From: Euglena gracilis
Lineage: Eukaryota
NCBI GenBank assembly: GCA_039621445.1
Contig: CP154954.1
Coordinates: 8,434,634-8,498,633 of the forward strand
Length of the DNA: 64,000 nucleotides
Direction of reading: 5' to 3'
Under the pieces are notes generated by a model. It worked only from the letters and a program-made list of their open reading frames with translations, did no database searches and was not told where the DNA came from. Shown piece by piece: positions 6,043 to 47,600 of the stretch (its first letter is position 1; each line of letters starts with the position of its first letter). The translations under genes and the position numbers were made by a program.

Positions 6043-6063
6043 TGTGAGAGTGAGTGAGTGAGT

Positions 6064-6119
<56 letters not shown>

Positions 6120-6122
6120 AGA
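6043..6122. repeat. (GAGT)n/(GA)n microsatellite
   Basis: Directly visible. Confidence 0.97.
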
Positions 6123-8900: not shown

Positions 8901-9779
8901 GGTTTGGGCTTATCGCCTTTTCTTGAGCGGGGCTAGGCGGGGAAATGGGGGATTATTTTTCTGCTGTGCACGCTGAGGGGGACTGAGCAGCGGCATGCGT
9001 GTGCGGGGGATTGGGATTGGGTATGGGGCGGTCTGTTTCATGTTGGGGAGTCCCATGGTGGGGGACACACACCACCGGGGCGGGGTGAGCCTGGGGAGCC
9101 GGATCCATCTTGTCGGTGTGGTTTGTTCCCAGGAAATTTTGTTCTGTGAAAAACCTCTGCCACCAGTTTCCCGAACGATGTTGTTTTTGCCCAGCCTTCA
9201 CTCCCGGGGGTCCGTGAGGGGGTACCGGCGGGGTGGGGGGTAGGCGCGATGGGCTCTGGGGAGAGGGGTAGGTTCGGGATACTCCCCTTCCCACGTAGGA
9301 GTTTTTCCCGGGGACCGAAGGCCCTCCTTTTTGGGAGTGGTTGGAGGGGGGAATCCGGCTTGGCGTCCCTTCCGGCAGTGGGGGGGGTTTAGGAAAAGGC
9401 CTGGTTGCCCTCCCCTAGGCTTCAGATACCCCAGCACCAACACCTTTTTGGCTTGTACTGCTCTCCTGATCCAGCAGATAACCAATCTTTTTTGTAATCC
9501 TTTGCTTGCTCCGCCCTTGGGTTTTTGACTTTCTTGAACTTTTGCACTTCCTTGGCTCCAGTGCCTTTCTTTGAATTGCCTTGAAAATCCTTGAAAATTG
9601 ATATAATTTGACCTTGGTCTTGATTCAGCAGGCACAATCTTGAATTGAAACCATGGGTAAAAAGAGGGAGCCTGCAGTGAAAAACAGAACAGTTAGAGAG
9701 CGGTTTGCGCTATTTTGATGCTGAATTAGCGCAGTGGTTCGCTATATACAACAGCAGGCTGTTATAGTGGCAATGGAAG

Positions 9780-13249: not shown

Positions 13250-15418
13250 CGAGGTTGTCGGTGACGATGCGGCCGGCTTCGGTGCCGCCCGGTAGGACGG
13301 TGCGCTCTGCGGTGGGAACGGGGCGCTGGTTGCTGCGGGTGCGGAGCGTGGTGCCGCTGACGGCGCTGCTGATGGCGGAGGAAGCGTCGTCCGGCTTGGT
13401 GCGGTCTGGCGCGGTGCTCGCTTTTGTTGCTGCCGGACTGGGGGCGTCACGGTGGCACGATGCTGTGTAGACGATGGCACGGACGCTGCTGGCTTGGCGG
13501 GGGGCGAGGACTGCGCAGACAAGACCGGTCGCGCCGCAGACGGTTGCTCGGAACGACGGGACTTCTTCTGTAGCACGGACCAGTAGTTGTTTGTTGAAAC
13601 CTGATGGGCCCGCCTTGACAGTGTGCTTCAGGGCACGGTCTCTCCCCTCCTTGGCAGATTTGGGGCTGGTTGGGTCTGGGTGGCGTGCAGGGCTCTTGGG
13701 TGATTGCCCGCACGCTCACGCTGGCGTTGGGACTTGACGGCCGGCCCAGACCCCCATCACTGGGGCCTGGGCAGCCCCGTCACTCATGATAATGCTCCTG
13801 GACGGCCGAGACGTTGCTCTTGCCGTCCTTGCCTTTGCCTTTGGACTTTCCTTTTCCTTCATCTCCTTTGGCTCCACCTTTCGCCTTGCCTTTTCCTTTG
13901 CCTTCACCTTGTCTTGGGGCATTCGATGTCCACTGCTCGCCTTGGTACCCACCACCTTTCCCTTTTTCTTCATTTCCTTGCCATGCACTCGATGGGTTTG
14001 GTATCCACCCTTTCCATTTCCTTCTTCACTCGTCCATGGGATCGATGACCACTACTCCGGGTACCCACGTCCCCCTTGGCCTTTGTGCTTTGCCTTGGGG
14101 CGCGGGCACCGGCGGCGTTGGCGGGCATGGTTGCTGCGCTTGCTCCTCCTTCTTCGGCGGCACATTCGTCTTCTCCACCTCCTGGATGTACGGCTCCTCG
14201 GTGGTGTCGTCGACCTCCACGTCCCGCTGCCACCGTGGTACAGGCCGCTTCTCCGGGATCTCCTTCTCCTTCTCGGGGGCCCTCTTTGCCTCCATCCGCA
14301 GCCAATTCACCATGAGGTTGTGGATGTCGTTCGCCGGTAGGTCGCACGGTTCGGCCGTCACCGTGACGATGCTATCGCCCTCGAGCCCCTGGCGGTCGTA
14401 CACGGCCTTCACCAGGGTGCGGTACTCGTCGCCCACTGGCACCACCACGAAGCGGTGCCCCGCCTTCCGCACTGAGGCGGGGGCCACCGTGGTCTCTTGC
14501 CTGATCATCTCCTTCACCTCCTCCACCGTCGTGTCCATCGGCAGGCCCTCCAGCTCGATGGACCGGTGGTCTACCCGCTTGTCCTCCTCCTGCGCCACCT
14601 TCCGGCGCCAGGGGTGCAGGGGCATGGCTTCCACGCGGAGCTTCCCCAACTCCTCCTCCTCCATGCCCACCTGCCTCGCCATGGACGCCATCTGCGTGTA
14701 ATACTCCCCCCAGGACTTCTCGGTCAGCTTCCCGCTCGTCACCAGCTTCAGCTTCCTAATTCGGCGCCGCAGGACCTCCTTGTCCTCTCCACCGTTTGCC
14801 AGGTCCACCTCCGCGAACAGCACGGCATACTCCACCTCTCTCTTGGTCTCGATCTCCTCGTCCAGCATCAGCACCGTGGCCTCGTCCAAAGCCGCGCGGA
14901 ACATGGCGAGACGCTGGGCTGACGTGATGGATGGCCACGCCTGCTCGAGTTTCCGTAGAAACAGGAGCCACCGCCTCCGCCACTGCGGCCAGTCCTCCGG
15001 ATGCCCGGAGAACCGGCCCGGGTGGAGGCCGATGACGGAGTCCACCAGTGGCGCCGGGAGGAAGGAAGAAGAGGAAGTGCAGGGCCGCTGGCTGGGACTG
15101 CACCGGGGCGATGCAGACCTCTCGCACCGCGTACGCGACTGGGACGGGACGGCGGACGGCGTGGTCAGGCAGGCAATGGAGAGGGACGGCACCCCGCCCC
15201 CTCCCGCCGCGGCCTGCTTCCGGACCAGCCGGAGAGCTGGTCGGAGGGTGGACGACGACTTCTCCTGCACCACGGACTCCTCCTGCATAGGCTTCTCCAT
15301 CTGACCGTTCTCACCTCTGGCACTGGCTGCTTCTGGGCCACCAGCACCGGCTGCTCGGCTGGGGGTGGCGGAGCCTTGGCGGGCATGGCCAGCAACGCCT
15401 TGGCTTGGGAGGATACGA
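13250..15418 (-). pseudogene. gag: Gypsy gag, 3' half (DNMT element)
   Basis: HPGRFSG..DWPQWRRRW capsid-like motif, GK-rich tract, Pro/Ala linker leading into the DNMT; frameshifted. Confidence 0.8.
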
Positions 15419-15673
15419 TGTGTTTTACCCCTGGCATCCTTCCAGCAGTTTCCAACTTGCAACTTTTCTTGACTTCACCAGCTGCAGGCAAAATTCCCAA
15501 TCAGAGTGCACTTCCAGATATGTCCAAAGACATCCAGGTAAGCCCAGGTAAACAGTGCACGTTTGTTGCCGGCTACACAGAAACAGATGAAATGAACTGA
15601 AATTAGGATTCACTTTTTTGAATTAGGGAATGCCACTGGTAGTAATTACAATTGCCAGGACCAGTGCCTCACA
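15419..15673 (-). repeat. 3' LTR of element A
   Basis: Near-identical to 32984-33248 (one ~10-bp indel, scattered substitutions). Confidence 0.92.
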
Positions 15674-28193: not shown

Positions 28194-31100
28194 CTATGTC
28201 AAAAATGTGGCAGAATTTTGAGCGGGGACACCGGAAAATCCTGGAACGATGACCAGAAAGGATACTGGGCAGGGGATGACTAGGGTCATGACTCCTGTCA
28301 CCTCCTTTCTAGTAGCCCCTGTAGTCCACATCCCTGGGTTTCGGGTGTCTTTACTCAAAATCCGAACCAGTGGCCATATCAGCCATTGAATTTCTTGACG
28401 CATATACGTCTCTGAATTTATGAGCGCTAAAGTAGGGATGATCCCTTTGATTACGTGGGGTATCATCCCCCTCCCTGCCCTGCCCGAAGCCGGGTGATAA
28501 TCCTCGATAGAGGTTGTTCTTTGACCTACCTTATGCCTTTTGGCTGAAGTATGATCTTTTGAACTGCGAGTCATATCGCGATGGCTATGGCTTGGGTGGG
28601 GAGGAGTCGCATAGCGACATTTGGGTGAGGGGTGTTTGGTGGATCGTGATCGATATTTTGAATTTTGCGAATGCGCATTTTGTGAAAAACGAGAACTGCA
28701 TGATGAGGCTGATCCTCTTGGACTTGTGTTGCGCTTTCGCTCTGCGGGATGTGGACAATGGCAAGATATATGACCCTTTTTGTTAGACAAAAAGCACAAT
28801 TTGTCCGAAAATTCTTCTGAAGAGCGCGAATTGCGTAATTTGGATTCCGCTATAGCGGTATGTGATAAGCCGACTGGATTTGTCCCAGAAGCTGTGATAG
28901 CTTCAGCTGTTTGGAAACATATTTCCATCGCTCATCGAGCGTCAAAATATGTCCTGCGAGTTCCTCTCGGTGAATTTCTTTTATGAGTTTGGGTATAAAG
29001 TGCAGTAATACTGCGTCAAATTGCTCTTTCATTTGGGTTTCGCCTAACTCGTCTACTTCGGCTGCCAATGCGAGCCATTTTGAGTACCATAGGTCTATCG
29101 ACCTCCATTTTCGGTCATGGGGGGCATATTGCCGCCATTTTTTCTCCAGAGTGATTCTGGAAACCAAACTTGAACATGAAGAAGCATATTGCTCAACCAA
29201 ATCCTGAAAAGTAATGCGCCCGCGAATGACCAATTGTCTGGCGCGTTGCTTTTCGTCTTTTGGTAGACAATCCATGAATTCCATTTTGATCACCTCCGGG
29301 TTTCCGTTGTGGGTTGATCCTTTCAGATCCCAATAATATTCCCAATCACGGAAAAACTGTTTCCATGTTGTTGGGTCACCGTCCCATTGGGGCTTTACCT
29401 TTTTCGCGATAGCGATGATTCCTTTTATATCTTTCTGAGACTCCCATGGCCCTTCGGTGGTATTCAAGGAGGTTGGGCCTGGGCGCAAAACCGCACCATG
29501 CGCGGGTACCTCGGTGGTTGCACCAAGTGTACTTTTGGGTGTATTTTGCGAATGCGCATTCAATATTCCACTTGGTGTACCATAGGTACCTTGCAAACTT
29601 GGTGAATCGGGAATGCGCGAATGGTGATGCTGATGCACCTCAGGATCAATACCATGTGCGGGAGTGCTGCTCATACCGCGACGAAGTTCATATTCCCACA
29701 TTTTTCGATTTCTTTGAGGGTTTCGCTTGGCTTTCTCTTGAAAAACAAACCCCATCATCGAAAAAATGGTCCATTGGGACTGGTAACGCTTGGCGAGGGA
29801 CCACTACATGAGCAGAATCGTAATTTTGTGGCAATGTGCCAATGGGTTCTACCACAGGTGCGTTATTAGCGCTTTTGAAGCTGGTATCTGCGGCAAGTGT
29901 GCCTACAACACCCATATCGGGTTTTTGTTGTAAAAAACGCAATTGCGCGTGTACTTGATCCAAATTTTCTTCAAAGTCACGAAAATTTATCTCCAAATCA
30001 TCGAGAATTTTCAGGTGATCGGTGATTGCACCAATATCTTCCTGCAAACGCTTAATACGCCTGCGGTGTTTGGACATATCATCCAGAAGAGGGATTTTGT
30101 CAGAAAAAGACCGGAAATCTTGCGAAATTTTTCCAAAACCACTTTCCAATTCCCGTAGTCGCACAGCTAGAGTGTGCACGGCTTCGTAAATAGACTCCAG
30201 TTGTGGAGATGGTTTGGAAGGAGGGGTATTTTGTGGATTCCGCACGTTTTCAGCCATTGGCTGTTCCAAAAACACCGAAACTTGCGCGGATAGCGCTGAG
30301 AAATCTTTTTGCAAGTTTTTGACTTGCTGATTCACTGTTTCCTCGGTCCGTATCGGACTGTCACAAAATTTTTTCCTGGCTTGGTGATTTTCATCACGCA
30401 TATCTGCAGAAAATGGCTGAAATTCTGAATTATGTGAACATGGTACCGCAATGCAGTTCTGCAACTTCGCAATTGCGGTTTGGATGTCAACAATATTATT
30501 CTGCCACCGTTGGTGGTAAGCATCCTGCCTGCTTGCGATATTCGCGATATGGGCGTAAAAACTTGTTATTTCAGCAGAATTTTCACCACACCTGCATGAG
30601 TTTCGCTCCAACCGGGAACGTCTTTCCTCCAATTGCTGCACATAAGTGCTGGAAGCGAAACCTTCACCAGGTTGGGTGTGCATATGGTGAAAATTTGCCG
30701 ATTCACGGCTCAGTTGCATAATGCGCTGTTGCGCTTCCTGGAATGCAGTGATTTGCTCCAAGGCAACAAAAGCTCCCATATCAGGATTTTTGGGCTCAAA
30801 ATGTGCCGTTATTGGCTCCACTTTTGTAAACAATTTTTGCAAACTGTGTGGGGTGTGTAAAAATGCTGCATCATTGCTGGATTGCATCTCACACAAATTT
30901 TCGCTCATTCTCTGAGAGTTCTGTGCGGGTGTGTCCGCCTTTGGAGCACATGCCAGCATGCGGTGAACCACATCAGTGGGGTGTTTGTCAATTGTGCCTG
31001 TAGGCACCGTTGCGACATCTTGATGCAGAGAATTACAACAAGATGCCTGACTTTGCAGCAAAGGCTGATAATCACACTGGGCGATGGGTTGCTCCAAAGA

Positions 31101-31715
31101 GCCACACGCCGATAGGCGTTGCACCCATTGCGCAGCAGGGTTATCGCCTAAATCAAACACCGTTAGGTGTGGAAACTCCTGGGTGGGGAAATGCTCGATG
31201 GAGCTTGATACCGTTAGGTGTTGCACCTTTTGGGTGTTGGAATGCTCGATAGAGCTGGGAACGGTGGGGGAATGCTCTATAGAGCTGGGGGTTGGAGCTA
31301 ATTGCTCGATAGATCTGGCCACTGTGGGGGGATGCTCGATAGAGCTGGACACCGTTAGGTGTGGCACCCATTGGGTGGGGGGTTGCTCAATAGAGCTGTG
31401 GGGGGAATGCTCGATAGAGCTGGAGAACGGGGTGGGGGAATGCTCGGTAGAGCTGAAAATTATGGTAAGGTGATGCTCAATGGAGCTGAAAACTTGGGTG
31501 GGGGGATGCTCAATAGAGCTCGGAACCAATGGGGTGGGGGGATGCCCAATAGAGCTGAGAGTTGCCCCATATAGGGCCACACACCTGGGTTGGAGCATAT
31601 ACTCCTGCGACCAATCTTCATCAAACTTTCTCAAAGCACTAATCAAAGCTTTTGATGTGTTGGTGCTTGAGCTCTGCATATTTTTATTTGCAGAAACAAG
31701 CACAAGAAAGCCCAA
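28194..31715 (-). pseudogene. gag: gag of element B (three frameshifted segments)
   Basis: ORFs 29688-31715 (SSIEH repeats, coiled coil), 28850-29758 (PQWDGDPTTWKQFFRDW capsid-like) and 28194-28928 (degenerate knuckle CFLSNKKGHISCHC); lies just downstream of the PBS. Confidence 0.78.
31190..31560 (-). repeat. Coding repeat: ~11 copies of AGCTCTATCGAGCA (SSIEH peptide)
   Basis: Variable spacing, reading frame preserved throughout the ORF. Confidence 0.9.
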
Positions 31716-31910
31716 AAAGTAAGCAAATGAACAAACTCAGAAGGATGTGGCAGGGTATACTGCCCAGAGCCTCCTGAAGCTCGTGCCTGTGCTTAGAAGT
31801 TGGCTCCAAACAGCTCGTGGATGCTTTGTGGCCTATAGGCTCAGCACCACTCACTGTTTGAAGTCACCTGTTAAGATGGGGGGAAGAAGGGGCGTAGGAA
31901 AGAAACCTAA

Positions 31911-32983: not shown

Positions 32984-33248
32984 TGTGTTTTACCCCTGGT
33001 GCCCTTTGCATGCTTCCAGCAGTTTCCAACTTGCAACTTTTCTTGACTTCACCAGCTGCAGGCAAAACTTCACAATCAGAGTGCACTTCCAGATAAGTCC
33101 AAAGACATCCAGGTAAGCCCAGGTAAACAGTGCACGTTTGTTGCCAGCTACACAGAAACAGAAGAAATGAACTGAAATTAGGATTCACCTTTTTGAAATA
33201 GGGAATGCCACTAGTAGTAATTACAATTGCCAGGACCAGTGACTCACA
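32984..33248 (-). repeat. 5' LTR of element A
   Basis: Partner of 15419-15673. Confidence 0.92.
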
Positions 33249-35000
33249 ACGATGACCTTCGAAACGATCTGGTCCAGCTGCACGGCCATCACCACGGCTT
33301 GTGTCTGGACGTTCACCTTCTGCACTTCGGTCTCCACCACCCAGATCTTATAACCAAGGCTGTCCGCGGCGAGCCGTTGCACGGCCACGGTCAGCCCTTG
33401 GGCTTGTGCTCCCACCTTCTGGATCTCCGTCTCCACCTTCTGGATCCTCCCCACGATCAACGGCGGCAGCTCAGCGACCTTTGGCTCCTTGGCCGCGGCT
33501 GCCTCCACCTTGGTGGTGAGGGAGGACTCCTGCGCCACCAGGAACTTGACCTGCTCCTTCAGCCAGGCGTTCTCGGCCTGCTGATACTGCAGCTGCTCCA
33601 CCAGGCGCGGCGCCACCTCCACCGCCTCGCGCTGCGCCACCGCCGTCGCCTCCACCCTGGCAGTTAAGGCGGCCATCTGCACCTCGACGGTGTTGAGCTT
33701 CCCCTGCAGCTGTACGTTCTCGGCCCGCTGCCGCTCCTTCTCTTGCAGCAGCTCCTGCACCGCGGCCCTGAGATGCGCCACCTCCACCAGCTCGGTGAGT
33801 CCACCCGTCGGTACGCCGCTCTTCACCGCCATCACCGCGGCCGCGGAGTTGTCTTCCGCCTCCTTCACCTTCGCCCGGATCCTTCGGAAATCTTCACCGA
33901 AGTCTCCGAGCGCGACGTGGGTGTACTTCTCCATTCTTGTCATCCGCTCCTCCGCCGTGGCCACCATGGGCAGGAGCTTGTGGAGTTGTGATATTCCTTT
34001 ATGTAGTCTGACGATGTCGTCCTTCACCTTCACCACGTTCTCCATCAGGTCCACGTGGGCCACTTCTTGGGACGCCATCCTTTTCTTCAGCTCTTGCACC
34101 GCCACTCCCTGCTCGTCCACCTTGTCCTTCATGGCAGCGGCCGCACGGCCGCCCAGCTGTCCCACATCTCCTTCGCCTTTGAGCCGATGAAGTCGACGGT
34201 GTTGCAGAGGCGGTCCATCCGCGTCTGCAACGCAGCGTATGCTGCCTCCCACTCGGGGAGGCCCTGCATGACCTCGTCCGGCTTTTCCTCGGTGTCGTAC
34301 ATCTCGCTCTGGTCCCGCCCGCCAGCCACTCCTCGTCGTCATCACGAGGACCTTCTCCCCGGCGTTGTTGTTCACTTTCACCTTCTCCTTCATCCTCTTC
34401 AGTTCCTTCGTCATCGGAGAGGCCCAGCCGCGGCACCTTGTGCGGCCGGACCGAGGATGGAGGGGTGCGGAAGTGCGGGTGCACCGCGGTGGTGCTCGGG
34501 TGTTCGCTGGGTGACCGGTAGGGAGGCGGCACTCCCACCGGTGCGGCGATGGCTTGGCTGGACGACGACGCCATCTGCGACGGCGAGGGCCCTGCCACGG
34601 GCACCGGTGGCAGAGCAGACTGCAGGGACGGATGCACAGATGGGATCAGGCCAGCCACGGGGACGGGGATCCCGTCTCGGCCCTCGGACTCGCCGGGGCC
34701 GACCTCGTGGGCAGGGTGATAAATGATGGCCCGCATGCCCTCATCAGGGCTCATCGGTGGCTCGGGGCTGGGCACGGGCACCGGCAGGCCTGCGAAGGCC
34801 CCCTCACTCTGCAGCTCCTGGACGTCCCACAGGTGGGGCACCTCGGACGGGAACGGGAACGGGAAGGGCAGGGAAGGGATCAGCTGGGGGAAGGGTGGGA
34901 TCCCGGGGAAAAGCAGAGAGGGTGGGGCCCCGGGTGGTAGTCAGGTGGTCGGGTCCCAGCTCTGGGGCTGGGCTGATTTCGGGAACAGGAGGGGGACTTG
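33249..35000 (-). pseudogene. gag: Gypsy gag, 5' half (DNMT element)
   Basis: Coiled-coil ORF 33221-34414 joins in frame to 15418 after removal of element A; N-terminal architecture parallels the gag at 6.4-8.9 kb. Confidence 0.82.
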
Positions 35001-36129: not shown

Positions 36130-38150
36130 TCGACCATGACCGGTGTACCGGGGTTTCTCGCCCGTGGAGCTACACTCAGCCAGGGGGCATTAGCCCTAGG
36201 GTTCGAGCCACTCGAAGACCTCCATCCCTTGCCTCAGCTCCTGATGCTTGGCGATGGCGTGCTTGATAGGGGTTGCTTGTCCTTAGTGTCACTGCTCGGC
36301 CGAAGCCGCAATGGTTTAATCGTGACACGTCAGGTAGGCAACAGCTGGTGAACCGATGGTTCACCGGCCCTCACCCATCAGGCACGCCATGGTCAAGCCT
36401 CTGGTTGCTGATTTCCACCTCGGCGCCATCGGAAATTCCCGCCGTACTGCGGCCATTCCGGACCCCGCCTGGCAGCGCAGTATGCCATGGCTGGTTCAAG
36501 TCCCGTGCACTCCCGACTCGGAGTTTAGCTTATCGGGACTCGGAGCAGAAAAGCTACAAAAATTACGAATAAGTTCACTCTTGCTATTTTGAGACCAGCC
36601 GTCCGTCCGTCCAGCCAGAATGCACCCTGTCCAGCCGTCCGTCCAGATGAAAGGACTTTCCTCTAGCCCTCCGTCTGACCGTCCATCCGTCCGCACGCCT
36701 CCAAGGTGGCCACCATTGGGGCTTTGTTCGTGGTGCCTTGGCAATATGGATCGCATGGCTTGAGAAGCTGACGCAGGCGGCATGCTTGCACCTCCCCATT
36801 ACTGGACGGAGTAAGGTTGATGAAGGCTTGTTTCACCACCGTCAGCAAGCTCCTCTGGAACTGTCCCCAAGCAAGCTGCTTCGCCAGCTCCCTGGCCAGG
36901 GCCATGCTCAGGCCCTGCCAGCAGTTTGCCTCTGTTGCTCGCCTCTCCCAAGAGTCGTGCTGCCCCATGAGTAGACGTACGCATTGGCCAACGAAGGGAA
37001 GGGCCGCATCACCCATGTCCCCGTATCAACCCAGACAAATGGAACGAACGTCCATCCCCTTCGTTGGCAGCCATCACCATACTTCTTGATTTTGTCCTCC
37101 TCTTGCGTCTCATGCCATCTACCAAGGTCCTCTGTCCCTGTTCGCGTTCGGGAGGGTGCTAAGGGGTGGCGGACCGTCACGTCGATTGCGGCTGGACATT
37201 GGAATCGTACACGAAGACATCCCCGGGTGGTCAACCATCAGGGGCAGCTTCCTTTCGTCTCGCTGGGAACCCAGCACTTTGAGCAAGCCCCAAGAGGTAG
37301 GATTGCACCGCCCCGTGTCGCCGAACAATGTTGTTTCAGTTGCAACAGACGACATGTTGGCCTCGCACATCCAGGGGATTGTGGCACCTGGCATCAGGGA
37401 CCACTGGACCAAGACTTGGAATTCCCTGGTCGGCATGAGGGTTCTTGCACTTGCTGAAGGCATCACTGACGCCCAAGCCATTGCAATGGGCTTCATTTGG
37501 CATGTCAGTTTGAGTTTGCCAGCTCAAGAGAGAGAATTGTGTAACCTTTGCGGCAGCTCCTTTGCTCACAACTGCCCCCAGAATTTCTGGGAGACGACTT
37601 CATGAGGTAACATCCCGCAACTTCGGGGGTCATCCATGAACGATTTGACCACCGGTGGCACCTCACATGACGCTTTTATGTCCTCCACCAGCTTCGAGAA
37701 GTCCGTAGGGAGTAGGTTTGTTCCAAAAAGCAGGGGGAAATCGAGAATGTGATCACCACAGGTTAAAAAATCGAAGGTTGCAGCCCAACTTGCGTGTGTG
37801 CGTTCAGTGCTGGGGTCTCTTTTTCACAGCCCACCAAGGCGGACTGGCAATGTGGCCTGGCTCCACCGGTCGTCTTCCAGGGACCGTCCGGCAATGGCAC
37901 TCACTGTGTTTTGTAGAGTCTTGCTGAGCAACCTGCACTGGGTGGACGCGAAGAGGATTAGTGTTGTCCGTAAGAGGTCGTTCACCTTGCACGCATCCAA
38001 GCACATTCGGAGCACCGTGAATTGGATGTGTGAAGACGGTGCCTTTTACAGAAGGGAGCACGCCTTCAATACTGCTTCACATCGTCCGAACCAAACTCCC
38101 CAGTCGCCCGACTCGGGCATGGTGCAGTGTGGAGACCAAGTTCACGGTGA
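36130..38150 (-). mobile_element. 5'-truncated CRE-clade (RLE) non-LTR retrotransposon
   Basis: LRMCLDACKVNDLLR, QATLPVRLGGL, AAIDVTVRHP..KIKKY..C..RGWTFVPF (RLE C-terminus); frameshifted; (GGAC)n in the 3' UTR. The 3' boundary is approximate. Confidence 0.82.
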
Positions 38151-38206
38151 TGGTTAGACAAAGCCTCGCCAACAAAATAACCAGCGTGAGAACCGAGCGA
38201 AATGCT

Positions 38207-38491
38207 GCCCAAAGGATGACTTATGGATACTTTATAGGCACATTTTAAGGAGGAAAACCGGACTGTATTTACCAAAGCATGTGTTGTGGAAACATTTTTT
38301 TGTGCATCCAATAAAAGGGAAGAAAACGAGGAAAAACATCAAAACAATGTGCAAAAATAACCTCATTGCATTCATGCATGCACTCCCTCGAGGGGGGCAT
38401 GGCATTTTGACTAATTGAACAATTTGCATAATGATAATAGAATAAGTATTTGACCCAAGATCACAAGGAAAAAGGGGAAACCATCCTGGTT
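38207..38491 (-). other. Nonconventional intron in hAT transposase
   Basis: AAC-CAGGATG...CATCCTT-TGGGC; removal joins DFPQTAPR to AFRSVLTLVILLARL in frame. Confidence 0.65.
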
Positions 38492-39225
38492 CTAGGCGCA
38501 GTTTGAGGAAAATCAACCACGTCCGCAAATGTTCTCAGTTCTACTCCCCTTTGTTTGCATATGTCATGCAACATTTGGCGCTCGAATTGAAGCGATGTGG
38601 GTTGATCAATGTCATCACCATAGAAGCGAAGCATCTTTTCTGCCGACACGGAACGTAGTATGGGGATTGCGATAGTTGTCAGCTTGTTTTTTTAAAAAAA
38701 TTGTGTTTTTGTTCGAATATTTACACTTTTTTTAAAAAAAACCCCAAAAAAGCCCACGGGGTTTTTTGGCAGACCAAAACGTGCCCGCAACGAAAAAAAC
38801 CAACTGTTGAAAGGGGCTTAGAGTCAAGGGGAGGGGTCGGGGACTTTAGTGTTTTGGGCGTTCCATGGGCAGGCTCTCTTCATTGTCGTGCAGAAGAAAA
38901 TTCTCCACATCCAAAATGTTTTTTGCGGCCACTCCATCAACAAACCGCTCCGAAATCCTTTTGGAAACTGCCTCCAAATACGTCTCATACTTTTCTTGGA
39001 AATGTTCCTTTACACTCTTGGGCGCGGGTTGACTGCCATCAAGCGTAGATTTCCTTGCTCGTGGCTGGGTAGGTTCATCAATCCCATGTTTGAGTGCCCC
39101 AATTTGGCAAGCGTCCAAAAGGTTTCAAAGCGCTCCTTTTTCTTGAGGTCCTCCAAAGAATCCCTGACGGTTTCGACGACCTCCTTGGCTTCAGTGAAGT
39201 GAAATTGCACAGTCTGCAGCACACT

Positions 39226-39306
39226 GAAGGCAGAGTTGTTTTGAAAGGGTCAAAACCACGGTGCGACCATGCCATGACAAGGGGGGGGGATGGCAAAACC
39301 CTTATT
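39226..39306 (-). other. Nonconventional intron in hAT transposase
   Basis: AAT-AAGGGTT...AACTCTG-CCTTC; removal gives TGDRAN/SVLQTVQ in frame. Confidence 0.55.
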
Positions 39307-39864
39307 GTTGGCTCGATCCCCCGTCAGGAAGATGAACCTCAGCAAATGAATAGAAAAGAAGGTGTCAAACTGCAGCAGTCGTGTGGCAAACCCATGGGCT
39401 GTAGTCCCAACTTCACTTGTATCTTGGTTGTCAACTTCATTGAAAAATTCCAGCAAGGTCCGGTAGTTGCTGCATATGCCTGCGAGGGATTTCGCTCGCA
39501 TGGTCCACCTCGTTGGGCACAGTGCTGTCAAATTCACCCCTTCATCTGTGTCGCTCGCAACTTCCTTAAACCAGTGCATCCTCTTTGTGGAGTCTCTTAT
39601 GAATGATATCAAGCTGCCAACCAACGTCATCATGTCCCTCATGGTCTTGAAATCCTTCAACGAATTTTGAATCACAAGGTTGAGGGAATGGGCAAAAAAA
39701 AAATAAACATACAACGCCCGTTTCTCTTCCGAAATAACCAATGCTTGCAGGCCATTGAACTTCCCTGCAATGTTGCTGGATCCGTCATAGCCTTGTCCGG
39801 GACAATTAGCAATTTTCAACTGGAACCTTGTCAAAATGTCTTTCAACACAGAAAAAAGGGTAAC

Positions 39865-40096
39865 TGGTCCAGGGCTCTACCAATGTTCGCATGAAAATCA
39901 GGCAAGTACCATTATCCCCCCTAAATGACCCCCTCTTGTCCCGACCAATTCGTGATGTACACACGTTCTCCCATCAAGTCAAAATATTTTCAGAAAAAAC
40001 CCAACAAAACTCCAAAAAAATAGGTGTATTATGATCATTTTAGCACAGAAAATGGGAGGTGAAAGCAGGAGGGAAAAGTGTCGTAGAACCCTAGTT
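39865..40096 (-). other. Nonconventional intron in hAT transposase with hAT-like TIRs
   Basis: AAC-TAGGGTTCTAC...GTAGAGCCCTG-GACCA; removal gives HDVSG/VTLFSVLKDILTRF in frame. Confidence 0.78.
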
Positions 40097-40717
40097 GCCA
40101 CTCACGTCGTGCACTTCATAAAATCCAGACCAAATCTCCTCGTTGTGAAGATCTTCATCAACAATGCGCAATGTGAAGGATAATTGCTCCATGACGGAAA
40201 TGTCGCTCGTCTCGTCCATGATCACGGCAAAATGCTGGGTTCCAAACAGGATTTGGGAAGGTTTAATCTGAAACCTGCCAGTAGGAGGTCTTTTTTCACT
40301 TCTGCCAAATGTTGGGCTGCTGTCTTTTTGCTTGGGGCTAACAGCAAAATGTCGTCCAGGTGGATGAAAAGCACTTTTCCCTCCTTTCTCCATTTTCTTT
40401 CCCAGACTCTCATGAGAGTCATGAATTTTTGTGGCAGGCTGCTGATGCCAAAGCATGCAGCCTGAAACTGCCAAGGAGCTGGGGTCCCCACGGCCAGCCA
40501 GATACCGGCCAGACCTCCTCCTCCTCTTTTTTTCACCAGCCACCGGACAGACCTCCTCCTCCTCTTTTCTCCCAGCCGCCAGCCACGGCCAGCCGCGGCT
40601 GGCCGTGGCTGGGGCGCCTCCTCCTCTTTTCGTGCCTGAGCTTACTTTCTCCCCCGGCTACCACCCCCCCCCGCCGCGCCGCGGCGCCGCCCGCCAGTCG
40701 CAAAGAAAAAAACAAAG

Positions 40718-41815
40718 TCACATACGTACTGGGCGGTAAGGGCAGTGTGGGACGCAAATGGAATTGTACACGTTGAGGACAGAACAGACGACCGTGAAAG
40801 CCCATTCCAGGACATGAAAATCTTTCCCTCGGAATCCGGTGCGGAAAATTTCCCACTTTTTCACTCGGCCGAAGGCCTGTTCAACCCGGCTGCGGTAAAA
40901 TTGATGCAGGCGGTTGTACTCCTCCTCGTCCTTTGTCAGCCCCACACCGGCGGTTCGTTTTTTGGCCGGTGTCAAAAAATTGGGGACCGACTCGTAGGCC
41001 AAATCGGCCAAAACACAGTCGGTAGGGGTCAGGCTTGGGCGATGCAGTCTGGCAAGGGTTGTGTCGGACATGGGGGCAGGATTTCATTGGTCATATGACC
41101 GCCAATGGAAATCCTGCTTGGAGCCTATATGGGGGCCATTGATATATGCAAAAAGACCAAGGTGAGTAACCAACCCTTGAAATTTCATCACTGGCCGCTC
41201 GTACTTTGGCTGGTACCTCCCGTCCCCCTGGAACACCACCACGGGCATGGTGTCCCAGCCCCCCACCACGAAGGGCGGGTAATGTGGAGTGTTGTTGTTG
41301 GGGTGCCGGAGATGAGCCATCGACACCTCTCGAAGGTGGATATGCAGGTACTGCAGTACTTTGATAATTCTTCGCCAAATGCTTTTTCTTGTGGGCTCCA
41401 GTGTGTGGGGGGGAACGAGCCCACCAGCCCCAGGAGTCACCAGAAAAACAGAACAATAATGGTGCCCCCTGTTTGAGAACTCTGTGCCTTGGGTAGTGTT
41501 TCAAATAACCCAATGCAAGCCAGAGGTCCAACCTTCCAAATTCAAAATCAGGGTCCAAAGTACCAGAATAGGAGGGGTTGTCACGGGAAGGAAACAAACT
41601 GACAAAAAATGCAAAATGTGGAAAAAAATTTGATGCACAGGACCCTGTCCTGAGCCCACCAAATATTTTTGATAAATAATTTCGCATACAAAACTTGGCA
41701 CACCAATTTTCCCCACGACGTCTTCCCGACCTGCCGCGGACTCCCAGAATTCCTGTGACACAATTTGAAAAGGCAAAGCGAGAAGCAAAGCACGAGAACA
41801 GTCAGTCAAAGACAT
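40718..41815 (-). CDS. IS5/PIF-Harbinger DDE transposase (DDE_Tnp_4-like), 4 exons, 297 aa
   Basis: Exons 41815-41651, 41543-41475, 41425-41120 and 41071-40718 join in frame with no stops; catalytic WDT, LADLAY, YN..RSRVEQAFGRVK. Confidence 0.9.
41072..41119 (-). other. Nonconventional intron, 48 nt
   Basis: C|AAG-CAGGATTT...AAATCCTG-CCCCC|A: CAG at +4, CTG at -8, hairpin, Y|R at both junctions; contains an in-frame stop. Confidence 0.88.
41426..41474 (-). other. Nonconventional intron, 49 nt
   Basis: C|AAA-CAGGGGGCACCA...TGGTGACTCCTG-GGGCT|G; removal restores the frame. Confidence 0.88.
41544..41650 (-). other. Nonconventional intron, 107 nt
   Basis: GGA-CAGGGTCC...GGACCCTG-ATTTT|G; removal restores the frame. 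Confidence 0.85.
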
Positions 41816-42109
41816 AATGTTCGGACTCCACACGAAAATGTATGAGGGGGGTGATCACTTTGGTTGGAGGACCGATCCTTCGAACGGGGGGGGGGGACGA
41901 AGCGCCAGGCCCACAATTTTTGACCCCCCAAAAAGACCAAAATTGACATTCTCGGCACTTTTCAGGCAAAAACTTGCCAAAAATGCAAAAATTTTCAGCG
42001 CTAAGCGCCGGAGGAAAAAATTGATCCTTTTCAAAAAATTGCCTCAACCACACCGGGTTCTGGCCAGGGGGGGGGGGAAGGTCGCTCCTCTCCGCCCCAC
42101 ACAGTGTGA

Positions 42110-44616
42110 CGTAACTCTTCTGTGAGTTTGTACGTCTTATCTGACACACATCTCAGCATCTGCACTTGAATTTTCTCTCGTCCCGTCCAAGCCGAACGCA
42201 GTACCCCAAATTCTCCTCCTTCACACTCAATCACTGTCCCCAGATATGTGCCTGCGGGCACCATTCGTCTCCTTGACCGATTACTGGCGTTGCAGTTCTC
42301 ACGATACACAGCGTCCGCCAGCTCGGCGTCCGTCAGAACACGACAACAGGGAAATCCTCAACCACCCGCAAACCAGGCAGGAGTGTAACAGAAATATGAC
42401 AAAACATGACATGACAAAACTTTCTGACCTTCCCTGGCTGGGGTCGGGTGGGTTTTCGTTTTGCGTATCGTTTTCGATCGTCATCCCCACCACCATACAC
42501 AGGGGCAATTGCATCTCTCGACGTACAGCACACCCACAGGTTCCTCACAAGGGAGCTTTCAGAACTGAATGAAAAGTCTCCCTGATCCAGACTATCCTCT
42601 TCAGGGGTAAATCCCAGCGTGGAACGGTCACGCCACGTCCGAACCATGGATTCACGGAGGGGGGGGCCAAACCCACCCAACCAATTACTCTCAAAAATGA
42701 CCCCACCCCCCCCCCTAGGGGGAGGGGTCACACAGCATCAGTAAATCAATGGTCCGAACACCTGGGTCATATGACAAGTCCTTGTGCACTTTCCACCCCT
42801 GGGTAATTTCTGCCAGGATTTCCTGTGCGATTAAAATGCCGTAATCAGAAAACCCTGCCCTGTGAACGGAGTTCTTGCTGTTTGGGATAATTTTTTTCCA
42901 ATGCATCTGACGACCACGTAACTGGTTTCAAGCCCACCAATGGATTGGGAGTGCATACAGGGTATGTTGGGGCTTGCACTGGGAGAATGTCGGGGGCGTC
43001 ATGGGCAGTTGTCGATCGCGAACTGCTGGGGGCCTGAGCTTTGGGGAGCCAAAAAGTGTGTCGATACCAGGGGTTTTTTTAAGACCGGCGGACCCACCCA
43101 CCCTACCCCCCCCCTCCCCCCCCGGGGGTCCAAACTTAAAAAAAACCCTGTTCGATACACGCGATCACACGTCAATCGAACGGCCAGCCCAGAGGGATCG
43201 CCCGCAAACTGCAGTATGCCACAGATGATCTCCTTGAGCTTGTAATCGCACAGCATCACCACGAGCCTGTTGTCCAAATTCCTTCGGCTGCGCACAACAG
43301 TACTCTGCTGCACACCTTTGCATTGACCATGGGACGCAGCACACAATTTTCGTACGTCAATTTTTTTATGCTTCAGGCTTCGTAACTCAAAAAGAGAGCT
43401 CCAGAAACCCACCCAAACCATCCCAGAAAAACTCCCCGACCTTTCAACCAGGGACTCTGAAACTAGTCTGAAACTCGGCAACGGCCTGCCAGAGCAATGG
43501 CGTGATCAGTGGCCGAAAGGTGCCCCGGGGTCCTCTGCATCTTCGTATGTGAGTGTTGACCCCACAGGAATCAAAATGCCTGCCGCATCGGGGACAGGGC
43601 ACCTTGGTTTGCGTTCAGGCTTGGGCTGAGATATTTTACAGCACCATTGGCCCGGTGCGCCGACCCCAACCAGCCAACCCAGTGACGGAGCATGTTTGTC
43701 GGGCATTTCCTTGACACGTAGCAGCATGCTTCCCCAGGGCCTGCGATGTGACCAGGCCAATGCTTCCATGGGGGAACCATTCCAGTCCATGGGGAACCAA
43801 TTACATGGGGAATTTTATGACATTTTTTTGTGTAGAAAACACCCAAGGGCAACAACCCGCTGGAAAAACAAGACTGGTGGGCAGTGTGCGAAACAGTATT
43901 GCCAGAATGGTGGAAAAAGAAAATTCTCACTTCATGTAGAATCCCTGCGTGGCCATGATGAGGTGAAGCACTGACGTGGCTGTGAGGAAGCCGGTACGAT
44001 GGCACTTCGAACATCCCAAGCTGGTGATCTCCACAACAGGTTCCGCTCCTTCTTCCTGCCCACGTTCCACCACAATCACCTCGTCCTCAGTGGTGGGGGA
44101 TGCTGCAGCCTCCATTGCCAATGCTGATGGAGACAGATAGTAGCTGGAAATTACAAGTGGGGAAAAAAACCTGAGCTCTCTGTCCTTGCATCTGCCTCAG
44201 TGTTCTGTTGACCAACTTCCATACGGACGGAGGCTGCTGCTTGAAGGGTGTCTTGTGCAACACCTATTGCGAAATAATTTCAGATTGCGTCAACTTGCAA
44301 AAACAAACCAGATTTCCTTTGCCGTAGAGCAACATGTCTGTCATATCGCTTCACCAGCGCAGCAGTGGCATCAGCCGGTAAGAGGTGGGTGCACGCAAGA
44401 GAAAAGCATCTCGTAAACCTCCCTCGGTAAAGACTTCTGGGTCAAAGAATTGGGTGCCTTTTGTCTGACAGCACGGGCAGTCTTTGTGAGCCAGCTGCCT
44501 TTGAAGCGACGCTGTCGCAGGCCTTCTTGTAGGAGGGTCATTCGTAAGTCCTGACATATTTCTGGGCATGAGGGTAACGGATTACCAGCAACCTCCGCCA
44601 ACACTTCTGTGTCCAT
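42110..44616 (-). pseudogene. Second, multi-exon gene of the Harbinger element; product unknown
   Basis: Chain of minus-strand ORF segments (44371-44616, 43927-44121, 43506-43790, 42999-43481, 42715-42906, 42333-42731, 42031-42309) upstream of the transposase. Exon structure only partly resolved. Confidence 0.55.
43068..43150. mobile_element. 83-bp hAT-like MITE that doubles as a predicted intron (43063-43153, minus)
   Basis: TIR CAGGGGTTTTTTTAAG / CTTAAAAAAAACCCTG; 8-bp TSD GTCGATAC/TTCGATAC (7/8). Confidence 0.85.
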
Positions 44617-47600
44617 GACTGGGGAAAAGTAAGATTAAAAGGTTCACGCGAAAAAAATGTTCGCTAATTTCCCATCGCGGCCAGCCAGACCTCCTCCTCC
44701 TCTTTTTTTTCCCCAACACTCAATCCAGCCAGACCTCCTCCTCCTCTAATCCCGCCAGCCAGCCGTGGCTGGCCATGGCTGGCCAGACCTCCTCCTTTTT
44801 TTTGCCAGCCAGCCAGCCGCGGCTAGCCGCGGCTAGCCAGATACCCCAGCTCCCAAGTTCCCCCCCCCCCACTTGCATGCAAACATGTTTCCAGGCTGCT
44901 GTGCAGCTTTAGGTGAAAATAAGCATCTTTCAGATCTATTTTTTCACGGAACCAACCCTTTCTCAAATATGAAATATGGGAAGATGCTTCCCATGTGTTC
45001 CAGTCTGAATTTCTGGGGGGTGAAATGGTGATTTAACTGTCCACAGTCCGAAATTAGTCTTTCCTTTGTCTTTTCCCCCTCTTTTTTGGAAATGTCGAAA
45101 TAAAGGACAAAAATGTTTTGCCTCCTCTGGGGGGATTTGCCTGGTTGCACCTGCACATTCGTATTCTCTCAGAATTTTTTGGGCAGTCATCATTTCTTGG
45201 GGGGTTTTGAAAGGAACTTTTAAGGACATCTGACGGGGGAGGGGAAGATCTGCCCTGACCCCTTCCCTTATCAGGTTTAATACCTCTCTGCTGGCACCTG
45301 CTTTGACCCAATGGGGAATGCTGGCCTGCAGTGCCTTGTAGGGGGGCACCCCTGGGTGTAATGTGTCTGGGGATTCCACAGGCCCCATCACTGGGGTCCT
45401 TCCCCCTGGTTGCCCCATCACTCGCGTCACCCCTGGCTGCCCCATCACTAAGGCTGCAGCTGGCCCTGCCATAGGGCTTCCCAAATACAGGCTTTCCCCC
45501 TGTTTCTGAATGATGGGGGAAGGTCTGTGTCTGCAGTGGGGAGGTACATATAAAGCTGGGGTGCCTGGGCTGATTATCTTCAAGGGGGGGCCTGTCTGAG
45601 CCAATCTTGGGCCTCCCCCCCAAGGGCTGATGTGGTGATTGTATTGGCCACCATTTGCCTTCAGGGCCATTTGGCCTCCATTGGCACTCAGGCCTGCATG
45701 GCCTCCATTGGCCTTCTCTCCAGGACTTCTCTCTTGTCTCTTCTCTGTCCCTCTTGATTCCCCATATAGGCCACCATGGCCTTTTTTTTTGGCATGCTTC
45801 TGGGGGGTTTGTGTCTGAAATTCCTGGGGGGAAAGTTGGACATACCTTTCCCCAATGGGACCTTTCCAGGCTGGGATACTGTCTGCCATAGCCTTGCCCC
45901 TGGGCCCACTGCCCTCTTGAATGATGGCTGCCATAGCCTTGATTCTGGACTCCAGGTCCTTTTTGATGATGGCTGCCATAGCCTTGATGATGACTTGAAT
46001 CCCTTGTATTTCTGATAATTGTTGAAAGGCTGCCATAGCCCTTGCCATGTCCCCTGGAAGGGGGGGGACTTAGTTGTTGGACCTGTGATGGTAATTCCCT
46101 TCTGTCTTCTTGTCTTCCTCACCACAGTTGTCCATGATCCATGGCCATTTTCATGTTGAGTGGGGGATTTTTGAAATCTCTGATGTGGTGGGGGCTGGGG
46201 GGTTGCGATGGCCACGGACTTACGTGTTTCTGCCGCCCCTCCAGCTTCTGCAGCTGCTGCTGTGTCTCCACCTTCCCCAGCTTCAGATGCCTTCTTGGAA
46301 GTTCTTTGAGGTTCTCCTTGGCTTTCAGATTCATTCTTCATGGAAGTCCAGTTATTGATCTTGTTTTAGTATTTGCAATGCTTCTGGAAATAATTCCAGT
46401 TGAACTCGAAGAGTTGAATTCTTCCTCCAGGAGGTTGAAGGTCCGAAAAAAAGTTCGCTCCACCTGTTGATAAAGTGATTGTAGTTCGTGAATGTAGTAC
46501 TCCTCGTAAATAATTTCAATTGAACTCGTCGAAGTAAAATTCTTTCTCCTTGAGGTCGAAGGGCAGAATTAGGAATCAGCCAACTCCGGCAACAAAAAGC
46601 AGTCAGAAGCACCCCCAGCGCACGCACAAACACACCAGAACAGAACAGCCGGCAAGGAAAGCAGGACCTCACCACCTCGCAGTGCGGAGCCCGAATGGTC
46701 TCAACTTTCCAACGTGCGACAATTTTTGAAGTAGAACATGATCAGAAAACATGGGCAAGATCTCGTTCTGGATCTCCGGATGCACCATTTTTAATGCTCT
46801 CCCTTAAGCCTCTCACCCATCTGAGGGATGTCTCTCCTTCCGACATTCAAAAGTTGTTCAAAGTTTGACTCCTTTTCGACCTGATGAACGAACACCAACA
46901 AGGTGTATTTTTTTCAACCCCCCCAAAAAACAGCCAAAATAGGACACAAATATTGTAGAGAACATAGGTGTCACAAGCTGGAATGGCATCGTCGTTTTGA
47001 CCACTGTAAATTAGTCGCCATTTTTAGGACAGCGGGATCGTCACTGACAGCCACTCGGGTCAAACGCAGGTTCTGCGTCAAACGAAAAAATTATGTCAGA
47101 CGTACCCGTACATTTGTCTGCCGGACAGCCAAAGCAGGCTGGAGTGGTGAAATCTGCCGGATGTGCTGCACGTAGGATACCAGGTTCCCCAAGAAGCAAA
47201 CCCTTTCAGTCGTCCCAAAACCCGGAAACGTTTTCCACACAGAACAGTAAGAAATGGAGTTAATTTTTGAACCTCCCCCCCCCCCCCCGCCCAAGAAAAC
47301 AAACCCTTCACTCCAAAACTGGTCCCCAACTGTGGCACCAAAACTGGTCACCACCTGTGGCACTAAGAGTGTTCCCCAAACTGCCCAAGGTTTGGACCCA
47401 AGATGTGGGAGGGGGATCTTAAACAGAACAAGAACGTCAACAACAAACAAAGACTTTTTCAAAAACCCTTTTGGCAAAGAAAAACAAAAACAAGTGAAAC
47501 AACCAAAGCCAAAGGCGTACAGCGTGCAATTTACAGCAACAGGGTCCTGTTTTTTTGCAAAACACCACAGGACCCTTGACACCTTCACTTCATTACTCTT

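Follow-up and report, generated by a model that had tools for sequence, protein, structure and literature searches.

The window, which is the whole stretch of 64,000 nucleotides of Euglena gracilis DNA that was analysed, contains on its minus strand, between positions 41815 and 40718, four exons that join into a stop-free frame of 894 nt, encoding 297 amino acids followed by TGA (Table 1). The unspliced frame meets stops in introns 1 and 3, and the start ATG (41815-41813) is the first ATG past an in-frame stop upstream. These introns, the exon sizes and the 297-aa stop-free product had been claimed in a preliminary description of the sequence, and the coordinates and lengths were all found as claimed. 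The three pairs of junction hexamers quoted there were located exactly at 41651/41543, 41475/41425 and 41120/41071; the intron lengths of 48, 49 and 107 nt were correct but listed in reverse, the 5' to 3' order on the minus strand being 107, 49 and 48 nt. All three residues of the D-D-E triad, D136, D203 and E244, are present in the expected motifs. Exon 3 contains D136 (in GGWDT, codon 41254-41252), the first Asp of the triad, along with the block RYQPKY…KFQ…GPHIGS; in alignment A1 no variation is seen at D136 or at the residues of this block. The other two catalytic residues, Asp D203 (in LADLAY, 41005-41003) and Glu E244 (in RVEQAF, 40882-40880), lie in exon 4.

Table 1. Features of the transposase gene and its flanks, in positions of the window; X1 is a run described in the text
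Feature	Position	Strand	Description
Flank outside gene	40204..40708	.	Extremely high-depth repeat block, depth up to 8.8e5 in X1
Reverse-transcriptase fragment	40222-40641	-	RVT_1, E 3.8e-6, under gathering score
Perfect palindrome, 34 nt	40579-40612	.	Within the 40204..40708 flank block
Exon 4	40718..41071	-	354 nt, 117 codons + TGA at 40720-40718; contains MSDTTLARLHRP
Intron 3	41072..41119	-	48 nt, nonconventional type: AAG-CAG…CTG-CCCCC|A; in-frame TGA
Exon 3	41120..41425	-	306 nt, 102 codons
Intron 2	41426..41474	-	49 nt, nonconventional type: AAA-CAG…CTG-GGGCT|G
Exon 2	41475..41543	-	69 nt, 23 codons, encodes …GRLDLWLALGYLKHYPRHRVL; colinear with the LKHYP/LKQYP block of homologs
Intron 1	41544..41650	-	107 nt, nonconventional type: GGA-CAG…CTG-ATTTT|G
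Exon 1	41651..41815	-	165 nt, 55 codons; N-terminus aligns with N-termini of P0002-P0006
Flank upstream of ATG	41820..42122	.	Non-coding, X1 depth 9.3e3 to 3.3e5; ORFs without Pfam match

The assignment to DDE_Tnp_4 was borne out: exon 4 alone matched this Pfam family (PF13359) with E 2.5e-11 over profile positions 72-158 of 158, and exons 1-3 alone gave no Pfam match at E <= 1. The full-length homologs are themselves DDE_Tnp_4 proteins (E 6e-13 to 2e-16). Six homologs, P0001-P0006, share 45-53% identity with exon 4 and, except for P0001 (213 aa), have lengths of 293-311 aa. Across all three junctions the spliced protein is colinear with the DDE_Tnp_4 relatives of 293-311 aa; with P0002 it gave a single HSP in which residues 22-295 aligned with 17-291 at 46% identity (E 1.6e-87). 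Junction 3 joins GPHIGS to MSDTTLARLHRP, the corresponding sequence being GPHxG[AQ]MSDTTLAR in six of six homologs, and P0032 shows an identical GSMSDTTLARLHRP. Within the family made up of P0001-P0006 and P0031-P0036, identity to the spliced model was 41-57%, and no protein above 57% was found. One member, P0035, is 48% identical and bears in its source the name eukprot:EG_transcript_39061; as judged from this transcript name, the style of which is met in papers on E. gracilis, the family of about 300 aa is probably transcribed in a euglenid. The nearest language-model clusters consist of eukaryotic DDE_Tnp_4 proteins of 307-332 aa. A search of solved structures with the A1 profile gave a chance-level match only (E 0.28), and the papers searched gave no published description of this transposase family or of such a Harbinger-type element in Euglena, those that mention nonconventional introns and transposases not dealing with transposases of Euglena.

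The three introns agree with the code of euglenid nonconventional introns, 5'-N3CDG-/-CH'GN5-6|Rexon-3', which was defined by Euglena knock-ins in 2025 (Nomura et al., PMC12501133); the +4/-8 positions of the motifs are also given in PMC11282704, with reference to earlier work by Milanowski and Guminska. As the preliminary description had claimed, CAG is found at +4 and CTG at -8 and none of the introns is of the GT-AG type. In all three, CAG occupies +4..+6 (GGA-CAG, AAA-CAG, AAG-CAG) and CTG occupies -8..-6, followed by a 5-nt spacer (CTG-ATTTT, CTG-GGGCT, CTG-CCCCC), the first base of the downstream exon is a purine (G, G, A), and the intron ends are GG..TT, AA..CT and AA..CC. A pyrimidine is followed by a purine at five of the six junctions. 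By both MFE and centroid folding, the CAG:CTG helix forms the closing stem of every intron (8 bp, 6+5 bp and about 16 bp). The closing stem of intron 1 is the 8-bp pairing CAGGGTCC:GGACCCTG (MFE -23 kcal/mol, z -1.49 against shuffles); intron 2 has a 6-bp closing stem with one G·U pair and a 5-bp inner stem (MFE -15.1, z -1.43); and intron 3 folds into an almost perfect hairpin, about 16 bp long and with a single bulge (MFE -21.9, z -5.09), none of 200 shuffles being as stable. Stability is significantly above that of shuffled sequences only for the 48-nt intron 3, not for introns 1 and 2. The boundary can slide by +1 in intron 1 and by -2..+1 in intron 3, and that of intron 2 cannot slide; the direct repeat at the intron edges measures 3 nt (CCA) in intron 3 and 1 nt in intron 1, and is absent (0 nt) in intron 2. 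No family of Rfam was detected at the gathering threshold in the whole 64-kb window, and no further copies of any of the three introns were found within it.

A loose form of this signature is common by chance: the gene contains 25 candidates with a stem of at least 6, as compared with 13.7 on average over 300 shuffles, and therefore the weight rests on the coincidence of the signature with homology and not on the motif alone. Within +-30 nt of the proposed sites, the boundary pairs that agree with the code numbered 6 of 3721, 4 of 3225 and 2 of 3193 for introns 1, 2 and 3, respectively. The boundaries were scored with an HMM built from the six homologs P0001-P0006, against which the spliced model reaches 355.3 bits. 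The model was outscored by none of the 850 stop-free boundary variants of intron 3, by 10 of the 1215 of intron 1 and by 27 of the 1050 of intron 2. The best eight variants listed for each of introns 1 and 2 lie within 3.7 bits of the model and none of them satisfies the code; the intron length of the model is kept in all eight for intron 1 and in five of eight for intron 2, where the other three give 52 nt. Toward the N-terminus, where conservation is poor, the homolog profile does not resolve the boundaries to single bases. Conventional GT/GC-AG introns were also tried as candidates and discarded because of their scores: one, two and two stop-free variants exist within +-30 nt for introns 1, 2 and 3, and the best of them reach 348.7, 345.4 and 328.0 bits, so that these alternatives score 6.6-27 bits below the model. 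The proposed boundaries appear to be those picked by both homology and the published code.

No RNA reads were found on 40709-41920 in samples that comprised about 5-6% of each of the runs X21, X22 and X24, and splicing of this gene is therefore deduced and not seen. In run X1, which is probably DNA although its kind is only guessed, none of the three introns was bridged by a joint in the contigs; the joints were confined to the flanking repeats (40328>40448, 40551>40599 and 41991>42062), and the contig piece 41370-41532 contains intron 2 unspliced. A variant X1 contig has small indels within intron 1 (41589, 41621), indicating that at least two sequence variants contain intron 1, and a variant at 41108 changes a C-G pair of the intron 3 stem to U·G. 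Between X1 contigs and the window 10 exon differences were counted, seven of which are synonymous in the spliced frame (expected fraction 0.234, P = 0.0023).

The lack of reads on the gene in the three sampled RNA runs is what would be expected of a dead copy, in which the hairpin segments are MITE-like or foldback insertions that inactivated the transposase and left a silent pseudogene from which nothing is spliced. Such an origin could also account for the CCA direct repeat on the two sides of intron 3, which resembles a target duplication, and would fit both the published view that nonconventional introns are derived from MITEs (PMC11282704) and the position of the gene in transposon debris without a detected TIR or TSD (see below). 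Introns 1 and 2, however, are without consistent flanking duplications, and all three segments satisfy the full code, which is enough for artificial inserts of 50 bp to be spliced out of a foreign exon (PMC12501133). No other lesion is found in the 894 nt, the D-D-E triad and every family-invariant residue are kept, and 7 of the 10 variant sites are synonymous. A dead copy is accordingly considered quite unlikely.

The neighbourhood of the gene is rich in debris of transposable elements, as represented by the RVT_1 fragment and a DUF4371/hAT remnant. The ends of an element were sought by an inverted-repeat scan of 38500-44500 flanking the coding sequence, with 12-nt arms and up to two mismatches, and with the reverse sequence without complement as the control. 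A total of 349 inverted pairs were obtained against 335 in the control, which is not above chance, although a 12-nt scan leaves room for shorter TIRs; when a 3-bp flanking repeat was included, the numbers were 9 against 5, again not above chance. The sole pair flanked by TAA is an A-run at 38736/43079, the match of which stops within 11 nt, and the best flanking pair (40657-40672 and 41888-41903, 81%) owes most of its match to a C/G homopolymer run, with no adjacent duplication. Comparison of the left with the right flank by blastn-short gave inverted matches no better than direct ones, a palindromic simple repeat matching both ways. As to a Myb-like partner, no Pfam match to such a protein was obtained among 29 flanking ORFs (70-368 aa, 36975-46365), a search by which an intron-split ORF would be missed, and no second copy of the gene lies within the 64-kb window. 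Of the related sequences, the 90%-identity cluster of P0004 includes 14 members, many of them truncated, each located on one contig; the contigs range from 22 kb to 2.4 Mb, all but one exceed 370 kb, and no two are equal in listed length. Among related loci screened for intron positions and covariation, 159 pattern matches in metagenome_contigs and 17 in viral_contigs were obtained, and none was confirmed.

The preliminary description had placed the gene inside intact TIRs and a TSD, and neither was recovered: the numbers of inverted pairs, with or without the 3-bp repeat, stayed close to those of the control, and the flanks gave no inverted match better than the direct ones. Its designation of a hidden intact Harbinger transposase can be kept for an apparently intact gene of the DDE_Tnp_4 (PIF/Harbinger/IS5-type) kind and is to be given up for an intact mobile element. 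A complete autonomous PIF/Harbinger element that is mobile at present, with short TIRs and a 3-bp TSD that escaped recognition, is rather improbable. The intact DDE_Tnp_4 frame would suit such an element, as would the 14 members of the P0004 cluster on separate contigs, many truncated as in an active family, the two or more sequence variants of the gene in X1, and the blocks of much higher depth on both sides, as if the gene had been inserted into an abundant repeat. These are to be set against the 349 observed and 335 control pairs, flanks that share in inverted orientation nothing beyond a palindromic simple repeat matching equally in direct orientation, the 29 flanking ORFs without a Myb-like partner, and a window with no second copy by which the ends could be delimited.

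The same lack of a detectable TIR, TSD and partner ORF could instead mean that the gene is a domesticated host gene, in which a protein of transposase origin has been retained for a role in the cell, outside any transposon. Introns are present as in host genes, synonymous differences are in excess, relatives are found on transcript-like contigs of roughly 1 kb, and the family keeps its length of 293-311 aa and many invariant residues at 45-67% identity. The retained catalytic triad and the near-identical multicopy cluster elsewhere fit a transposable element equally well, however, and domestication is weakened further by the TE-rich neighbourhood, by the lack of expression in the three sampled RNA runs (0 reads), and by relatives that form several diverged lines at 45-55% identity instead of one orthologue. 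This explanation is regarded as unlikely.

Taken together, the locus is most aptly called an intact-looking transposase gene that belongs to a transposon-derived family and is situated amid retroelement and hAT debris; the term intact-looking is used and mobility is left as unproven because no TIR, target duplication or Myb-like partner was found. We assign a probability of roughly 80% to the reading that it is a nuclear euglenid gene with three nonconventional introns, encoding a DDE_Tnp_4 transposase (297 aa) of the PIF/Harbinger-IS5 kind, its mobility and expression being unproven. Were the gene transcribed, its pre-mRNA would be expected to fold so that CAG (+4) pairs with CTG (-8) and the exon ends are brought together. 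The nonconventional splicing activity would then cut out every intron exactly, with the frame restored as a result; this folding and excision step is proposed on the basis of the published knock-in rules.

What is new is one more DDE_Tnp_4 gene with a known type of intron, the cis code itself being already published. Nonconventional introns make up 71.8% of the introns in the genus (PMC12501133), so that a transposase gene with them is expected and not surprising, and the gene is a tidy but ordinary example for a genome that uses such introns widely. The splicing pathway had been called mechanistically unresolved, which holds for the trans machinery, still to be identified according to PMC11282704, and no longer for the cis code, which was defined genetically in 2025 (PMC12501133). 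The 48-nt intron had also been offered as a minimal substrate, and this point adds little and is not new, because fully artificial 50-bp introns are spliced in a foreign exon under that code (PMC12501133) and natural nonconventional introns of E. gracilis below 60 bp have been catalogued (40 of 4495 and 146 of 11,656; PMC11170887). With the cis rules and 50-nt synthetic substrates in print, the splicing mechanism itself is not opened by this gene. Its significance lies elsewhere: in this lineage the nonconventional introns seen in host genes occur in genes of transposons as well, and pipelines based on ORFs or GT-AG introns fragment such genes, leading to an under-count of intact transposases in euglenid genomes. 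Such genes could be recovered by combining the published N3CAG…CTGN5|R code with protein homology.

PIF/Harbinger elements carry a 3-bp TWA duplication and a Myb/SANT-like second ORF, and typical Harbinger transposases are longer than 297 aa. The present gene shares with PIF/Harbinger elements, and with their IS5-family relatives in bacteria, the DDE_Tnp_4 domain and D136, D203 and E244 in the expected motifs, but differs in that TIRs, the 3-bp duplication and a Myb/SANT-like ORF were not found and in that the protein is shorter at 297 aa. Merlin cut-and-paste DNA transposons have been reported in the E. gracilis genome (PMC8101967). They resemble the present case as cut-and-paste DNA transposons of a Euglena genome and differ in belonging to another superfamily (IS1595-like), for which the TIRs are defined and the TSDs measure 8 bp, the passages concerned being silent on nonconventional introns (PMC8101967).

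With P0001-P0006 and P0031-P0036 the gene product has in common its length, its N- and C-termini and the blocks RYQPKY, KFQ, GPHxGxMSDTTLAR, LADLAY and HQFYRxR.E. These relatives, in contrast, were called as uninterrupted ORFs (for instance 296 aa on a 464-kb contig), indicating that at least some of them are without these introns. The P0004 cluster is among the uninterrupted ones, and the sequences of P0034 and P0066 begin exactly at MSDTT. Since the relatives are uninterrupted at all three sites and a transposon family is younger than housekeeping genes, the three introns may be recent gains, that is, hairpin elements inserted into a resident transposase gene and tolerated through the nonconventional splicing of the host; this is put forward as a speculative proposal with the odds against it. 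If true, the locus and its paralogues would represent dated filled and empty sites and provide direct material for the MITE-origin hypothesis, transposon activity would be gated by the nonconventional splicing pathway, and the family could be used as an intron-gain clock.

In comparison with the nonconventional introns of euglenids in general, two of the three introns stand at the short end of the E. gracilis size range, in which those below 60 bp account for about 1% (PMC11170887), and the host gene is a transposase and not a housekeeping gene, with removal from RNA predicted from the sequence. In other respects they are alike: the positions of CAG and CTG, the 3-nt and 5-nt spacers and the exon purine are shared by all three, together with extended pairing and borders other than GT-AG, and two of the three are slidable via short direct repeats, as are 84.4% of the introns of E. 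agilis (PMC12501133).

The candidate transposase gene on the minus strand was seen in the ORF track only in fragments, as the preliminary description had it: three minus-strand pieces in different frames (41501-41854, 41084-41500 and 40718-41083 in the stop-to-stop list) were found within 40300-42300, and the unspliced reading in the frame of exon 1 met two stops. Joining the four exons by their coordinates gave 894 nt, an uninterrupted frame of 297 codons closed by TGA, and the junction hexamers proposed earlier were located on the minus strand at exactly the positions assigned to them.

Exons and introns of the candidate DDE_Tnp_4 transposase gene. Higher-scoring variants are those exceeding the spliced model in the HMM test; code-satisfying pairs are pairs of boundaries within ±30 nt that obey the nonconventional-intron signature.
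Feature	Position	Strand	Length (nt)	Intron ends	Higher-scoring variants	Code-satisfying pairs
Exon 1	41815-41651	-	165			
Intron 1	41650-41544	-	107	GGA-CAG…CTG-ATTTT|G	10/1215	6/3721
Exon 2	41543-41475	-	69			
Intron 2	41474-41426	-	49	AAA-CAG…CTG-GGGCT|G	27/1050	4/3225
Exon 3	41425-41120	-	306			
Intron 3	41119-41072	-	48	AAG-CAG…CTG-CCCCC|A	0/850	2/3193
Exon 4	41071-40718	-	354			

The genetically defined signature of nonconventional introns is 5'-N3CDG-/-CH'GN5-6|Rexon-3', and pairing downstream of CAG and upstream of CTG is likewise needed for splicing (PMC12501133); a review places the motifs identically, at +4..+6 and -8..-6 (PMC11282704). All three introns satisfied this code in every item and none carried GT-AG ends, confirming the CAG at +4 and CTG at -8 noticed at first reading. 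Pyrimidine|purine was found at five of the six junctions, and the CAG:CTG helix formed the closing stem of each intron in both minimum-energy and centroid folds. Intron 3 was more stable than its shuffles (z = -5.09; 0/200 as stable) and introns 1 and 2 gave z = -1.49 and -1.43, a clear excess being observed for intron 3 only. A scan with the degenerate code (length 30-400 nt, stem of at least 6) identified 25 candidates on the gene strand and 28 on the opposite strand, against a mean of 13.7 in 300 dinucleotide shuffles of the gene, and about 24 candidates per kb in the entire window. The motif by itself does not exceed chance, and its weight lies in the agreement of the code with homology.

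A search with exon 4 yielded six longer relatives (P0001-P0006; 45-53% identity to exon 4), P0001 being 213 aa and P0002-P0006 293-311 aa in length. The spliced model was colinear with all six from end to end with no gaps at the junctions, and its alignment with P0002 consisted of one HSP that joins residues 22-295 of the model to 17-291 of P0002 (46% identity, E 1.6e-87). At junction 3 the model reads GPHIGS|MSDTTLARLHRP, all six relatives read GPHxG[AQ]MSDTTLAR, and P0032, another homologous protein, shares the identical GSMSDTTLARLHRP with the model. The boundaries were then scored with an HMM constructed from the six relatives, leaving out the window's own protein, for every in-frame and stop-free variant with either boundary shifted by 30 nt or less. 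The model itself scored 355.3 bits, and for intron 3 the only ties were three slid versions with unchanged protein. For introns 1 and 2, the best eight variants each differed by 3.7 bits or less and none satisfied the code; the length of intron 1 was unchanged in all eight and that of intron 2 in five, the remaining three being 52 nt. These scores indicate that homology determines how long each deletion is and roughly where it lies, and that the code picks the proposed boundary in all three cases. Conventional introns, the rival solution, were rejected: the sole nearby GT/GC-AG solutions scored 348.7, 345.4 and 328.0 bits against 355.3. A better-aligning alternative, which by the preliminary description would refute the proposed gene, was found neither among conventional introns nor for intron 3; for introns 1 and 2 the proposed boundary is singled out by the code, but some variants score higher. 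With a stop-free frame on whose boundaries homology and code agree, the gene model proved right.

Exon 4 alone matched Pfam DDE_Tnp_4 (E 2.5e-11, profile 72-158 of 158), exons 1-3 alone gave no Pfam match at E <= 1, and full-length relatives matched DDE_Tnp_4 at E 6e-13 to 2e-16. The spliced protein retains D136 (GGWDT), D203 (LADLAY) and E244 (RVEQAF), and so are the residues kept that do not vary across alignment A1 of the family. When 1.84 billion representatives were searched with a profile, 1465 proteins passed E <= 1e-3, 375 passed 1e-10 and 41 passed 1e-30. The language-model neighbours were eukaryotic DDE_Tnp_4 clusters (307-332 aa), with bacterial IS-type transposases coming next. One relative (48% identity) is named eukprot:EG_transcript_39061 in its source; since EG_transcript-style identifiers appear in Euglena gracilis papers, the family is considered to be transcribed in a euglenid. 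The 90%-identity cluster of P0004 includes 14 members, one long contig each (22 kb to 2.4 Mb, 13 exceeding 370 kb), many of them truncated, a pattern that is transposon-family behaviour.

Contigs of sequencing run X1, the kind of which was guessed as DNA, cover the gene throughout; piece 41370-41532 holds intron 2 unspliced, and no joints at any of the three introns were found in these contigs. Their 10 exon differences from the window, which may be alleles, paralogues or strain differences, include seven synonymous in the spliced frame (expected fraction 23.4%; binomial P = 0.0023), and this excess is further support for a predicted working frame. A difference at 41108, in the stem of intron 3, replaces C-G pairing by U·G, and small indels in a minor X1 variant indicate that at least two sequence variants hold intron 1. 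A search across sequencing runs listed no RNA run containing the sequence. Three raw RNA runs labelled as the same species (X21, X22 and X24), sampled at about 5-6% each, gave no reads on 40709-41920 and a few, at 90-99% identity, on the flanking repeats. E. gracilis splices out code-obeying sequences, fully artificial 50-bp ones included, when these are placed in a foreign exon (PMC12501133), from which we infer that this gene would be spliced.

None of the three intron sites is interrupted in the relatives, so that all three introns may represent lineage-specific gains by a young gene family. P0034 and P0066, fragments from other records, both start precisely with the MSDTT that opens exon 4, hinting that the intron-3 site is perhaps shared by some relatives.

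The intact TIRs and TSD claimed for the element were not borne out. Within 38500-44500, inverted 12-mers with up to two mismatches numbered 349 against 335 in the reverse-without-complement control, and inverted pairs with a 3-bp flanking repeat nine against five. Comparison of the two flanks by blastn-short detected only a palindromic simple repeat, matching equally well in direct orientation, and the best flanking pair was a C-run against a G-run. Among 29 flanking ORFs, none carried a Myb/SANT-like or other partner domain, and no second copy of the gene or of any intron was found within the 64-kb window.

The gene lies in repeat-rich DNA between two abundant repeats, with summed X1 contig depth up to 8.8e5 on the left (40204-40708) and 3.3e5 on the right (41820-42122), against about 290-2000 on the gene itself. 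This pattern would fit a lower-copy unit within abundant repeats, the ends of which are not defined by depth. Within the window these blocks recur only as 40505-40630 with 44681-44801 (75% identity). The left block includes a reverse-transcriptase fragment (40222-40641, minus strand; RVT_1 E 3.8e-6, 27.2 bits, below the gathering score of 29.6; motif …HLDDILLL…), which appears to split a hAT-like transposase remnant (39250-39876 and 40091-40200, minus strand; DUF4371 E 0.003, below gathering; …AVIMDETSDIS… in the ORF neighbouring this match). A perfect 34-nt palindrome (40579-40612; 17+17 nt, no spacer) lies inside CCAGCC/GGCTGG-type repeats, and related repeats in both orientations are located 4.2 kb away (44681-44834). 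Elsewhere, a second weak RVT_1 match (11227-12114, minus strand; E 4.1e-5, below gathering) is at the end of a 295-aa frame. Long minus-strand frames at 5971-8952 (993 aa), 29688-31736 (682 aa), 14026-15474 (482 aa) and 33221-34645 (474 aa) matched no Pfam family at E <= 0.001, and no Rfam family reached its gathering score in 1-64000.

Nonconventional introns account for 71.8% of introns in E. agilis and a similar share in E. gracilis, and their cis code has been published with functional 50-bp synthetic versions (PMC12501133). As introns shorter than 60 bp have also been catalogued in E. gracilis (40/4495 and 146/11,656; PMC11170887), the 48-nt intron, put forward as a minimal substrate, is not new in this respect. 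Neither a PIF/Harbinger-type Euglena transposase nor a transposase gene with nonconventional introns was found described in the literature searched, the supplementary TE and intron tables of which may hold cases; Merlin DNA transposons were previously reported from E. gracilis (PMC8101967). Since the cis code, the introns and the transposon kinds are already known, this locus adds a member to known kinds.
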